A DNA stretch of 64,000 nt from Escherichia coli O157:H7 (GCF_013167455.1 NZ_CP038328.1), one strand, 5' to 3'; positions 4,718 through 63,918 are shown, counted from the first letter of the stretch. Notes: generated by a model not told the origin, from the letters alone. A program made the numbers and translations.

Positions 4718-6960
<2,243 letters not shown>

Positions 6961-24240: not shown

Positions 24241-24264
24241 CTTACTCACAGCGACATCGTATAG

Positions 24265-24408
24265 TTACAGCCAGTTCTTGCGCTTAAAGTACAGATACGG
24301 TGCCAGGCCCGCGAGGATCATAAAGATAATCGCGCCTGGGTAGCCGAAACTCCACTTCAGTTCTGGCATAAACTCAAAGTTCATGCCATAGCTGGAGGCA
24401 ATCGGCGT
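24265..24408 (-). pseudogene. Orphan duplicate of the corA 3' end (last ~44 codons, including stop)
   Basis: 24265-24384 is near-identical (about 2 mismatches in 120 bp) to 25976-26095, the 3' end of intact corA, and encodes [44 protein letters not shown]; similarity decays over the next ~25 bp. ORF track shows this as part of a 67-aa ORF 24265..24468. Confidence 0.85.
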
Positions 24409-24597
24409 AGGAAAAAGTTTCCTAATCGGTAAATTCAATATTTTGTTATTAACAATGAGCAAGACCAATCATTAACGACGTTCTCTTCAGAGATGTAATG
24501 AAAAAATGTGAAGTGTACTTCTTTTTTAAATATTTTTTTACCCTAGCATTTGTTCTCAAATTGATATTGAGCTTAAATATAACCAAGGAAAATGTAA

Positions 24598-25968: not shown

Positions 25969-25975
25969 ACTCATA

Positions 25976-26926
25976 TTACAACCAGTTCTTCCGCTTAAAG
26001 TACAGATACGGTGCCAGGCCCGCGAGGATCATAAAGATAATCGCGCCTGGGTAGCCGAAACTCCACTTCAGTTCTGGCATAAACTCAAAGTTCATCCCGT
26101 AGCTGGAAGCAACCAGCGTTGGCGGCAGGAACACGACGGATACCACCGAGAAAATTTTGATGATGCGGTTCTGCTCGATGTTGATAAAACCCATTGCCGC
26201 CTGCATCAGGAAGTTCACCTTCTGGAACAGGGATTCGTTATGCGGCAGCAGGGATTCGATATCTCGCAGGATTTCACGCGCCTGCTCCAGTTGCCCACCC
26301 GGTAAGCGTGCTTTACGTACCAGGAAGTTGAGCGCGCGCTGGGTATCCATCAGACACAGGCGCACTTTCCAGCCGATATCTTCCAGTTCCGCCAGAGTGG
26401 AGAGCGCCTCGTCGTACTCATCGCCCTGATGCCCTTCCATAATCACCCGGCTCAATTGCTCCAGGTCGCTATAGATATTTTCAATTTCATCTGCCAACTG
26501 TTCGATTTTGGTTTCGAACAGATCCAGCAGCAACTCGTAGGCGTTACCGTCTACCATCGACTGGCTACGGGCACGCATACGATACAGACGAAAAGCGGGC
26601 AGTTCACGCTCACGCAGAGTAAACAGACGACCATCACGGATGGTAAATGCCACAGTGGAGTTACCGGCGTGATCTTCCGCATCTTCAAAGAAGAAGAAGG
26701 AGTGAATATGCAGGCCGTCATCGTCTTCAAAGAAACGTGCCGATGCTTCGATGTCTTCCAGTTCCGGGCGGGTTGCCAGGCTCTGGCCAAGTTCAGATTG
26801 TACGCGCAGTCGCTCGTCGTCGTCCGGTTCGACAAGATCAATCCATACTGCATTTACAAGGGGTTGTGACTCTTCGACTTCCAGCCGGGTCAGTCGGTTA
26901 TTTTCCAGTTGAAATGCGCTCAGCAT
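25976..26926 (-). CDS. corA: Magnesium/cobalt transport protein CorA
   Basis: Recognised CorA sequence ([31 protein letters not shown]... [11 protein letters not shown] ...KRKNWL, 316 aa); start at internal Met of the 321-aa ORF. Confidence 0.95.
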
Positions 26927-40168: not shown

Positions 40169-41428
40169 ATGACGGAACAAGAAAAAACCTCCGCCGTGGT
40201 TGAAGAGACCAGGGAGGCCGTGGACACCACGTCACAACCTGTCGCAACAGAAAAAAAGAGTAAGAACAATACCGCATTGATTCTCAGCGCGGTGGCTATC
40301 GCTATTGCTCTGGCGGCGGGCGTCGGTTTGTATGGCTGGGGTAAACAACAGGCCGTCAATCAGACCGCCACCAGCGATGCCCTGGCTAACCAACTGACGG
40401 CATTGCAAAAAGCCCAGGAGAGCCAAAAAGTCGAGCTGGAAGGCATTATTAAGCAACAAGCTGCACAGCTTAAGCAGGCGAATCGTCAGCAAGAAACGCT
40501 GGCAAAACAGTTGGATGAAGTCCAACAAAAGGTCGCCACCATTTCCGGCAGCGATGCTAAAACCTGGCTGCTGGCTCAGGCCGATTTTCTGGTGAAACTC
40601 GCCGGACGGAAGCTGTGGAGCGATCAGGACGTCACGACCGCTGCAGCGTTGCTGAAAAGTGCAGACGCCAGCCTGGCGGATATGAATGACCCGAGTCTGA
40701 TTACCGTTCGTCGGGCAATTACCGATGATATCGCCAGCCTTTCTGCAGTATCGCAGGTGGATTATGACGGCATCATCCTTAAGCTTAATCAGCTTTCAAA
40801 TCAGGTAGATAACCTGCGTCTGGCCGATAATGACAGCGATGGTTCGCCGATGGATTCCGACGGTGAAGAGCTTTCCAGTTCCATCAGCGAATGGCGTATC
40901 AATCTGCAAAAAAGCTGGCAGAACTTTATGGACAACTTCATTACGATTCGCCGTCGTGATGACACCGCCGTACCGCTGTTAGCGCCAAATCAGGATATCT
41001 ATCTGCGCGAAAATATTCGCTCTCGCCTGCTGGTCGCAGCACAAGCTGTACCGCGTCACCAGCAAGAGACTTATCGCCAGGCGCTGGAGAACGTCTCCAC
41101 CTGGGTACGTGCTTACTACGATACTGATGATGCCACCACCAAAGCGTTCCTCGACGAGGTAGACCAGTTAAGCCAGCAAAATATCTCGATGGATCTTCCG
41201 GAAACCCTGCAAAGCCAGGCGATGCTGGAAAAACTGATGCAGACTCGCGTGCGTAACCTGCTGGCACAACCGGCAGCGGGGACAACGGAAGCTAAACCTG
41301 CACCTGCACCTGCACCTGCACCTGCACCTGCACCTGCACCTGCACCTGCACCTGCACCTGCACCTGCACCTGCACCTGCACCTGCACCGCAAGCTGATAC
41401 TCCGGCAGCCGCGCCGCAAGGAGAATAA
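40169..41428 (+). CDS. hemX: HemX membrane protein, with (Pro-Ala)15 tract near the C-terminus
   Basis: 419-aa ORF with N-terminal membrane anchor and coiled-coil region; recognised as HemX; longer than the ~393 aa I recall for K-12 because of the PA repeat. Confidence 0.9.
41297..41386 (+). repeat. Perfect hexanucleotide tandem repeat (CCTGCA)x15 within hemX
   Basis: 15 uninterrupted copies of cctgca, in frame, encoding (PA)15. Confidence 0.95.
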
Positions 41429-42674: not shown

Positions 42675-42881
42675 AAAAAAACGCCTGCTCTTATTACGGA
42701 GCAGGCGTTAAAACAGGTCTGTATGACAACAAGTGGGTGCTTCACTCAACGTTGTGTCCATGGTGTCTGATGAGGCATAAGCGACATCTGTCAGTGGACG
42801 ATAAGCACCGTAAACGGCTCTGCGTCATTCCGGAGTTTATGAGGCACTAAGGCGAACATAAGAGATGGAATGAGCATCTAC
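42675..42881 (-). ncRNA. glmZ: GlmZ small regulatory RNA
   Basis: Reverse complement begins GUAGAUGCUCAUUCCAUCUCUUAUGUUCGCCUUAGUGCCUCAUAAACUCCGGAAUGACGCAGAGCC... and ends in a terminator hairpin AACGCCUGCUCCGUAAUAAGAGCAGGCGUUUUUUU, matching GlmZ as I recall it, in its known hemY-aslA intergenic position; the same hairpin on the + strand sits 50 bp after the hemY stop. Confidence 0.8.
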
Positions 42882-46364: not shown

Positions 46365-46474
46365 GGTCGCTCCTTGCCTGAAGTCATCCTTCAATACGTT
46401 AAGGGCGAAATCATACCGTGGGGCAATGAGTTATTACGGGCGTTTATTGCGAAGGGAGGGTGACGAAATGCACA

Positions 46475-46502
46475 GAAAACAAAAAACCCCGCCGAAGCGG
46501 GG
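46475..46502 (-). terminator. Intrinsic terminator of the tRNA operon
   Basis: On the minus strand: hairpin ccccgc-uucg-gcgggg followed by a run of T residues, just downstream of tRNA-Pro. Confidence 0.8.
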
Positions 46503-46510
46503 TTCAAAAT

Positions 46511-46587
46511 TGGTCGGCGAGAGAGGATTCGAACCTCCGACCCACTGGTCCCAAACCAGTTGCGCTACCAAGCTGCGCTACTCGCCG
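46511..46587 (-). tRNA. proM: tRNA-Pro (anticodon UGG)
   Basis: Reverse complement = CGGCGAGTAGCGCAGCTTGGTAGCGCAACTGGTTTGGGACCAGTGGGTCGGAGGTTCGAATCCTCTCTCGCCGACCA; full cloverleaf, encoded CCA. Confidence 0.95.
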
Positions 46588-46629
46588 AAATACTGCTTTT
46601 TGAATTTTTAGTTCAATTCTTTAAAGTCG

Positions 46630-46716
46630 TGGTGCGAGGGGGGGGACTTGAACCCCCACGTCCGTAAGGACACTAACACCTGAAGCTAGCGCGTCTACCA
46701 ATTCCGCCACCTTCGC
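46630..46716 (-). tRNA. leuT: tRNA-Leu (anticodon CAG), copy 1
   Basis: Reverse complement = GCGAAGGTGGCGGAATTGGTAGACGCGCTAGCTTCAGGTGTTAGTGTCCTTACGGACGTGGGGGTTCAAGTCCCCCCCCTCGCACCA. Confidence 0.95.
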
Positions 46717-46735
46717 ATTGTCACAACTTCTAATA

Positions 46736-46812
46736 ATGGGGTGGCTAATGGGATTCGAACCTCCGACCCACTGGTCCCAAACCAGTTGCGCTACCAAGCT
46801 GCGCTACTCGCC
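46736..46812 (-). pseudogene. Hybrid pseudo-tRNA: tRNA-Pro 5' portion fused to tRNA-His 3' portion
   Basis: Minus-strand sequence is identical to proM from the 5' end through the 5' T-stem (CGGCGAG...GGGUCGGAGG) and then continues as the hisR T-loop, 3' T-stem and 3' acceptor strand (UUCGAAUCCCAUUAGCCACCCCA); the acceptor stem (CGGCGAG vs UAGCCACC) and T-stem (GGAGG vs CCCAU) cannot pair. Confidence 0.85.
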
Positions 46813-46854
46813 GAAATACTGCTTTTTGAATTTTTAGTTCAATTCTTTAAAGTC

Positions 46855-46941
46855 GTGGTGCGAGGGGGGGGACTTGAACCCCCACGTCCGTAAGGACACT
46901 AACACCTGAAGCTAGCGCGTCTACCAATTCCGCCACCTTCG
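46855..46941 (-). tRNA. leuT: tRNA-Leu (anticodon CAG), copy 2
   Basis: Identical to copy 1; part of the tandem duplication. Confidence 0.95.
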
Positions 46942-46962
46942 CATTGTCACAACTTCTAATAA

Positions 46963-47039
46963 TGGGGTGGCTAATGGGATTCGAACCCACGACAACTGGA
47001 ATCACAATCCAGGGCTCTACCAACTGAGCTATAGCCACC
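46963..47039 (-). tRNA. hisR: tRNA-His (anticodon GUG)
   Basis: Reverse complement = GGTGGCTATAGCTCAGTTGGTAGAGCCCTGGATTGTGATTCCAGTTGTCGTGGGTTCGAATCCCATTAGCCACCCCA. Confidence 0.95.
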
Positions 47040-47096: not shown

Positions 47097-47173
<77 letters not shown>

Positions 47174-47275
47174 TTAGCGCCGTTGCGGGGGTGGATAATA
47201 CGGACTTCCCCCCCCTCTGTCTAGTCCCTTTTTAAATAAATTGCGCGTTTGGTTACGGTTTGTGCGTTTTGCTGC

Positions 47276-63457: not shown

Positions 63458-63787
63458 TTACGCCAGGTTAGCGTCGAGGAACTCTTTCAACTGACCTTTA
63501 GACAGTGCGCCCACTTTGGTTGCCGCCACTTCACCGTTTTTGAACAGCAGCAGAGTCGGGATACCACGGATGCCATATTTCGGCGCAGTGCCAGGGTTTT
63601 GATCGATGTTCAGTTTTGCAACGGTCAGTTTGCCCTGATATTCGTCAGCGATTTCATCCAGAATCGGGGCGATCATTTTGCACGGACCGCACCACTCTGC
63701 CCAGAAATCGACGAGGATCGCCCCGTCCGCTTTGAGTACATCCGTGTCAAAACTGTCGTCAGTCAGGTGAATAATTTTATCGCTCAT
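63458..63787 (-). CDS. trxA: Thioredoxin 1
   Basis: Recognised TrxA ([41 protein letters not shown]..., 109 aa, CGPC active site); start at internal Met of the 144-aa ORF. Confidence 0.97.
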
Positions 63788-63918
63788 ATATAACTCCACA
63801 GGAATAAGCCTGGCGTGTTGGTTTCGTTGTTGGTGTAACATTAACCAACTAAAGGTTGACTTTATTTCACCGGATACGCTTTCGTAAAGCAATAGTAAGC
63901 TGATATTCTACCACACTA

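Follow-up and report, generated by a model that had tools for sequence, protein, structure and literature searches.

An exact 226-bp tandem duplication in the argX-hisR-leuT-proM tRNA operon is typical of Escherichia coli O157 and leaves a probable Pro/His pseudo-tRNA

The argX-hisR-leuT-proM tRNA operon of Escherichia coli O157:H7 carries an exact 226-bp tandem duplication, which adds to it a second leuT gene and a chimeric tRNA-like sequence made of the 5' body of proM and the 3' end of hisR. The duplication was analysed in a 64,000-nt stretch of the chromosome (GCF_013167455.1, NZ_CP038328.1), hereafter the window. Judged from the genomes compared, it is the normal and already annotated state of E. 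coli O157:H7; the locus is already known, the O157:H7 reference annotation having included it from the Sakai genome onwards, and the rearrangement is of an ordinary, known kind, that is, recombination among clustered tRNA genes. The reading proposed here, which comprises a lineage-typical duplication, its origin, the processing of its transcript, later changes in unit number and a net of three tRNA-Leu(CAG) genes, is given a probability of about 0.88 as a whole.

Tandem Repeats Finder reports a single array at the locus (46525-46987), with a period of 226, about 2.0-2.05 copies, 100% matches, 0 indels and a score of 926. The two 226-bp units, to which no strand is assigned, occupy positions 46525-46750 and 46751-46976; they are 100% identical and lie head-to-tail with nothing in between, and by its sequence alone a repeat of this exactness is impossible as a product of chance. 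The first-pass annotation had placed a tandem 226-bp duplication at 46511-46962, which is confirmed, the array comprising the same 452 bp in another phase. The block common to hisR and proM is exactly 11 bp long, GGTTCGAATCC (GGATTCGAACC on the plus strand), and is also present in the chimera; its plus-strand positions are 46525-46535 (proM), 46751-46761 (the recombination junction, which forms the first 11 bp of repeat unit 2) and 46977-46987 (hisR). Around the junction the identity amounts to 11 bases, or to 15 of 17 when extended over the flanking GTCG, and the sequence that spans the chimera junction reads …GGUCGGAGGUUCGAAUCCCAUUAGCC…. The junction is located, as had been claimed, in T-loop sequence common to tRNA-His and tRNA-Pro.

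Direct reading of the minus strand gives the order argX, hisR, leuT, Pro 5'/His 3' chimera, leuT, proM, and ARAGORN reports six tRNA-like genes at the operon, all on the minus strand, the chimera being called tRNA-Pro(tgg); the gene order stated previously is borne out by both. Transcription would start from a pArgX promoter-like site (47195-47223, minus strand; TAGACA, a 17-nt spacer and TATTAT, with 10/12 consensus matches), a promoter-like sequence that may be the single promoter of the whole tRNA operon. It is followed by argX, tRNA-Arg(CCG) (47097-47173; ARAGORN, Rfam tRNA 64.1 bits), and by an intact hisR, tRNA-His(GUG) (46963-47038; ARAGORN, Rfam 69.7 bits), the donor of the 3' end of the chimera. 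The original copy of the A/U-rich, 20-nt hisR-leuT spacer (46943-46962) separates hisR from the upstream leuT copy, a tRNA-Leu(CAG) gene named leuT1 in Sakai (46856-46942), and the first copy of the 42-nt leuT-proM spacer (46814-46855) leads to the chimera (46737-46813; 46739-46813 in the ARAGORN call), which corresponds to tRNA51 of Sakai. Beyond it lie the duplicated copy of the hisR-leuT spacer (46717-46736, also 20 nt, located by direct reading and Tandem Repeats Finder), the downstream leuT copy, again tRNA-Leu(CAG) and named leuT2 in Sakai (46630-46716), the second copy of the 42-nt leuT-proM spacer (46588-46629) and an intact proM, tRNA-Pro(UGG) (46511-46587; ARAGORN, Rfam 65.8 bits), the donor of the 5' body of the chimera. 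The other three spacer copies were also located by direct reading, and both leuT copies, which are identical in sequence, are supported by ARAGORN, Rfam and the Sakai record. An intrinsic terminator (46474-46505, minus strand) closes the operon with a 9-bp G+C-rich hairpin (46505-46484) and a T run. All six tRNA-like units, each of them on the minus strand as are the spacers, are thus bracketed by one promoter-like site and one intrinsic terminator. Matches over the locus to rsmX, PrrF, istR and other Rfam families scored far under their gathering thresholds and were rejected as noise from the terminator and tRNA hairpins.

The arrangement is readily compared with the K-12-type argX-hisR-leuT-proM operon, which corresponds to the studied pArgX operon (PMC5137449). 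The promoter-like site, the four tRNA sequences, the spacers and the terminator are the same, as are the neighbours, thrP/yifK upstream and aslB downstream; the difference is that six tRNA-like units are found here instead of four, the 226-bp duplication having supplied the extra leuT and the chimera. For the K-12-type operon, processing by RNase E and RNase P has been characterised: in the argX precursor RNase E cuts in the single-stranded, A/U-rich spacers, just 3' of each tRNA and inside the leuT-proM spacer, and RNase P then generates the 5' ends (PMC2190699, PMC3985628). Since both spacers, the 20-nt one between hisR and leuT and the 42-nt one between leuT and proM, are duplicated in full, leuT keeps its native flanks at each copy and RNase E sites lie on either side of the chimera. 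By analogy with the characterised precursor, both leuT copies should mature normally, giving two tRNA-Leu(CAG) per transcript, and the chimera should be excised as an orphan fragment that would be unable to fold as a tRNA and would then be degraded.

The chimera takes its 5' part from the downstream gene and its 3' part from the upstream one: bases 1-63 of proM, through GGTTCGAATCC and including the UGG anticodon arm, precede the final 14 bases of hisR (CATTAGCCACCCCA). The fusion of a Pro 5' body to a His 3' end, as first described, is what the sequence contains. That it is a pseudo-tRNA is, in our assessment, very probable, and the opposite reading, a working tRNA-Pro(UGG) as implied by the Sakai label "tRNA51: tRNA-Pro", is very improbable, even if some of the evidence speaks for it. 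The D arm and the anticodon arm are intact and identical to those of proM, ARAGORN makes the call already mentioned, and the Rfam tRNA model gives 34.6 bits, which exceeds the gathering score of 29 and falls well below the 65.8 bits of proM and the 69.7 bits of hisR. That score, however, is reached only with the acceptor register shifted by one base and with a gapped T stem; the shifted acceptor, GGCGAGU/AUUAGCC, forms 6/7 pairs and leaves an A at the discriminator position. In the standard register only 14 of the 21 cloverleaf pairs can form (acceptor 2/7, T stem 3/5), against 21/21 for proM. The register shift also leaves one base, not two, between the acceptor and D stems, and places a G:C pair where E. 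coli tRNA-Pro has C1:G72; C1 of E. coli tRNA-Pro has been described as important (PMC8860583). The shifted cloverleaf, at -12.4 to -14.7 kcal/mol, is about 10 kcal/mol worse than the non-tRNA MFE fold at -24.4, with T-stem pair probabilities of about 0.006, while the cloverleaf of proM (-28.9 kcal/mol) comes within 2.5 of its own MFE fold (-31.4). MFE folding is a weak guide for tRNAs, the cloverleaf being missed for argX and leuT too, so that the pair counts and the covariance score outweigh the energies. Lastly, PGAP lists both leuT genes in EDL933, strain 319 and NJS001, the other genomes examined, and leaves the chimera unannotated. The hybrid had been expected to be probably non-functional, which is supported by the pair count and by a score about half that of proM; the stronger statement that it cannot form a proper acceptor stem or T stem is accurate for the standard register, and "cannot" goes too far in view of the shifted acceptor. 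Because the chimera passes the Rfam gathering threshold, is called by ARAGORN and pairs over most of that shifted acceptor, some residual tRNA-like behaviour is conceivable.

The distribution of the duplication was followed with a 39-nt query centred on the junction and chosen to find no 28-nt seed in genomes that lack the chimera. Matches of 100% identity, all of them chromosomal, were obtained in 287 of 5,426 complete E. coli genomes, leaving 5,139 without the junction. Among the matches listed (about 115 of the 287), every serotyped genome was O157, mostly O157:H7, so that "all O157" for the whole set is an extrapolation from the genomes listed by name; carriers include Sakai, EDL933, EC4115, TW14359 and the sorbitol-fermenting strain 493/89. 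Over the 3,039 bp compared, the window matches Sakai and EDL933 at 100% identity, and the Sakai record (NC_002695.2) annotates the six features argX, hisR, leuT1, tRNA51 (tRNA-Pro), leuT2 and proM2. The related O55:H7 strain CB9615 has the plain four-gene operon argX-hisR-leuT-proM and is otherwise 99.5-99.97% identical to the window across the roughly 44 kb aligned. Because CB9615 is single-copy while 493/89 and O157:H7 carry the junction, the event would date to the O157 stem lineage, after the split from CB9615 and before that between sorbitol-fermenting O157 and O157:H7. The founding event appears to be unique: a 52-nt query from the Pro 5' body found 5,719 places in 5,425 genomes, only four of them beyond the 290 chimeras, and the 27-nt core of the junction had no match in 100,044 species-representative genomes. 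These four, one of them carried by a plasmid, may represent other rearrangements of the operon; in one genome the proM 5' body was found at 4 places. Strain NJS001 (NZ_CP114130.1; pig gut, China; 5.1 Mb) carries the O157-typical junction with 1 SNP relative to the window in 6 kb, and is probably an O157-lineage strain with few prophages.

Two other accounts of the extra unit can be weighed against these data. The first-pass annotation had allowed that the locus might hold a single proM-leuT unit expanded in assembly. Short tandem repeats are prone to miscounting, and as deposited two O157:H7 assemblies have one unit and three have an extra one; miscounting, nonetheless, cannot create the junction sequence itself, and this sequence recurs in 287 complete genomes assembled independently, by many laboratories and on many platforms, the two reference strains Sakai and EDL933 among them. 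An artefact is excluded for the lineage on this evidence and would be an extremely improbable explanation of the extra unit in the window. Hardly any weight can be given either to the proposal that the duplicated operon, instead of being formed in place, came by recombination from a different species or lineage. No support for it was found among the genomes compared: the flanks are nearly identical to those of the single-copy sister lineage O55:H7, at the percentages given above, the units show 100% identity both with each other and with the resident genes, and the junction is missing from other E. coli lineages as well as from the 100,044 species representatives.

Formation in place is best explained by one event on the O157 stem lineage, in which the T-loop of proM would have been joined to the T-loop of hisR at the shared 11-bp block. 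Unequal crossing-over between the two genes had been proposed, and the product does fit an exchange between hisR and proM. The minimal homology requirement of RecA is about 20-30 bp or more, and the identity at the junction (11 bp, or 15/17 in the extended form) falls short of what classical RecA-mediated unequal crossing-over needs. Because 11 bp is very short for RecA, such an exchange is considered the less likely route, and slipped or template-switch mispairing between sister strands would be the most likely one; unequal crossing-over is no more likely than slippage or template switching at microhomology, the end product of the two being identical and the mechanism not readable from it. 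In either case the product is argX-hisR-leuT-[Pro 5'/His 3' chimera]-leuT-proM between the pArgX promoter-like site and the intrinsic terminator. In the reciprocal deletion leuT would be lost and hisR joined to proM, so that both hisR and proM would be destroyed; this deletion should be lethal because these two genes are single-copy in nearly all E. coli genomes (hisR, effectively single-copy, was found at 5,429 places in 5,425 genomes), which would explain why only the duplication is seen.

The effect of the duplication on tRNA-Leu(CAG) gene dosage depends on a second locus, leuV-leuP-leuQ. All three genes of this cluster are present in CB9615; in Sakai a single gene remains, with the upstream flank of leuV and the downstream flank of leuQ (NC_002695.2 5464566-5464652). 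A 207-nt query for this single-gene leuQPV form, at a coverage of at least 80%, matched 424 of the 5,426 complete E. coli genomes, and the first 60 matches listed were O157-type genomes, among them 493/89; the copy number of leuV-leuP-leuQ thus appears to vary across E. coli. The leuT sequence occupies 4 places in the median E. coli genome, against 3 in the listed O157:H7 strain PV15-279 and in most of the O157 rows among the matches listed. The ancestral total is therefore 3 + 1 = 4, as in CB9615, and that of a typical O157:H7 genome 1 + 2 = 3, three and not four because two of the three leuV-leuP-leuQ genes were lost. The doubling of tRNA-Leu(CAG) dosage suggested earlier holds within the operon only; genome-wide, the count is 3 in O157:H7 and 4 both in CB9615 and in the median E. 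coli, and the duplication does not double the dosage but at best offsets half of the loss. Two genomes deserve separate mention. FORC_044 is missing from the perfect-match list, its leuQ being 86 nt long, one base under the usual 87 nt, which is likely a homopolymer sequencing error. TR01 (NZ_CP033605.1), with the duplication and a two-gene leuQPV, was considered as an O157 intermediate and rejected as probably a recombinant or error-rich stretch. About 45 kb around its leuQPV (5522001-5545000) hold many protein accessions unlike those of the other O157 genomes examined, which suggests a segment recombined from another lineage or a locally error-rich assembly; among the differing genes are tsr, dnaC, fhuF, yjjZ and creBCD, together with others, and bglJ has an internal stop.

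Once formed, the perfect 226-bp repeats would offer ample homology, so that they could now expand and collapse by ordinary repeat recombination, and variants with one, two and three units are seen. The search of the 5,426 genomes with the junction 39-mer found two junctions in 3 genomes. Taking unit counts from the assemblies as deposited, strain 319 has three units and two junctions (argX-hisR-leuT-leuT-leuT-proM) and a total of 4 tRNA-Leu(CAG) genes, O157:H7 MB9-1 has a single-copy operon with one unit and a total of 2, and Xuzhou21 has only 2 tRNA-Leu(CAG) places in the whole genome. MB9-1 would have reverted to a single unit.

It can be asked whether the two copy-number changes are coupled, the duplication of leuT having restored supply after the leuV-leuP-leuQ collapse, or having come before it and made the loss tolerable. 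We consider this possible but doubtful, and the duplication may partly compensate for the loss. Both changes concern the same tRNA species and both map to the same short branch, which runs from CB9615 (4 genes) to the common ancestor of sorbitol-fermenting O157 and O157:H7 (1 + 2); the leuT duplication is, moreover, otherwise essentially unique among the 5,426 genomes. Deletion of leuVPQ has been reported to alter the tRNA pool, and losing frequently used tRNAs such as those for leucine to be costly when nutrients permit rapid growth (PMC9981150), which is consistent with a need for compensation. A laboratory precedent is provided by Pseudomonas fluorescens, in which duplications readily evolve to make up for a deleted tRNA gene (PMC7661048). 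On the other side, the genomes reached show both changes (493/89), the duplication (NJS001) or neither (CB9615), and give no ordering of events. About 135 non-O157 genomes (the 424 minus the O157 genomes) have a single-gene leuQPV, yet almost no extra Pro 5' body is found outside O157, and MB9-1 and Xuzhou21 apparently live with 2 genes. O157:H7 is also a young clone, in which a neutral change could be near-universal through descent alone. If the coupling were true, the locus would be a natural, lineage-wide case of compensatory evolution of tRNA gene dosage in a major pathogen, and the variation between one, two and three units would tune the supply of the tRNA for CUG, which is the commonest codon of E. 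coli.

Apart from the operon, the window holds several other features. In hemX (minus strand), a perfect hexanucleotide repeat, (ACCTGC) x 15.5, lies at 41296-41388, where the alignment between the window and CB9615 breaks; hemX is 1,206 nt long in O157:H7 MB9-1 and 1,182 nt in CB9615, a difference of 24 nt or 4 units, and on these sequences the repeat is an in-frame variable-number repeat inside a coding gene. Two 150-bp segments, 24261-24411 and 25973-26122, are 94% identical and correspond to the corA 3' end and a partial corA copy; between them lie two small genes, encoding a DUF943 protein and a YPO3983/DUF3289-family protein, in an arrangement shared with O55:H7 that looks like an old insertion by which the end of corA was duplicated. 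The Rfam gathering score was exceeded by matches to the GlmZ sRNA (42675-42881, minus strand, 218 bits), the "Erse" small RNA family (6355-6606, minus strand, 316 bits) and the trxA 5'-UTR thermometer (63758-63857, minus strand, 79 bits), all of which look like ordinary features of this chromosomal region.

Rearrangements of this type have several parallels. The closest is the Sakai locus itself, identical over the length compared and sharing all six features; no sequence difference separates it from the window, and the record labels the chimera plainly as "tRNA-Pro", leaving its hybrid nature unmentioned. The leuV-leuP-leuQ collapse and thrX, the latter being, according to Ardell and Kirsebom, a chimera whose covariance score is low (PMC1183518), likewise illustrate that recombination between tRNA genes changes copy number and can leave chimeras; the present case differs in that the genes involved, Pro and His, serve different amino acids, that they share 11 bp and that the resulting chimera is structurally broken. 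The duplications known from P. fluorescens SBW25 (PMC7661048, PMC10954465) are similar in their tandem tRNA gene gain and unstable copy number, but they are large-scale laboratory events with demonstrated selection, whereas that of O157 is a single 226-bp duplication, natural, lineage-typical and known from genomes. In McDonald et al. (2015), O157 tRNA copy number is treated only for the phage-borne argO (PMC4539685). A literature search found no paper describing the duplication or the Pro/His chimera, its reach not extending to Withers et al. 2006. That comparison, by Withers, Wernisch and dos Reis (RNA 12:933), reportedly covered the tRNA genes of K-12, CFT073, EDL933 and Sakai.

Recombination among clustered tRNA genes has long been recognised as a source of copy-number change and of chimeras, and the consequences of the present example for biology at large are small. 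Within O157 it has practical uses: the 39-nt junction offers a clean marker that nearly all the O157 genomes examined possess and O55:H7 CB9615 lacks, and the Sakai feature "tRNA51: tRNA-Pro", very probably a pseudo-tRNA, is best left out of tRNA gene tallies. Counting tRNA-Leu(CAG) genes at the duplicated locus alone would mislead, as O157:H7 has 3 of them against the E. coli norm of 4, and it is this three-gene count that is relevant to models of codon usage and tRNA supply in O157:H7.
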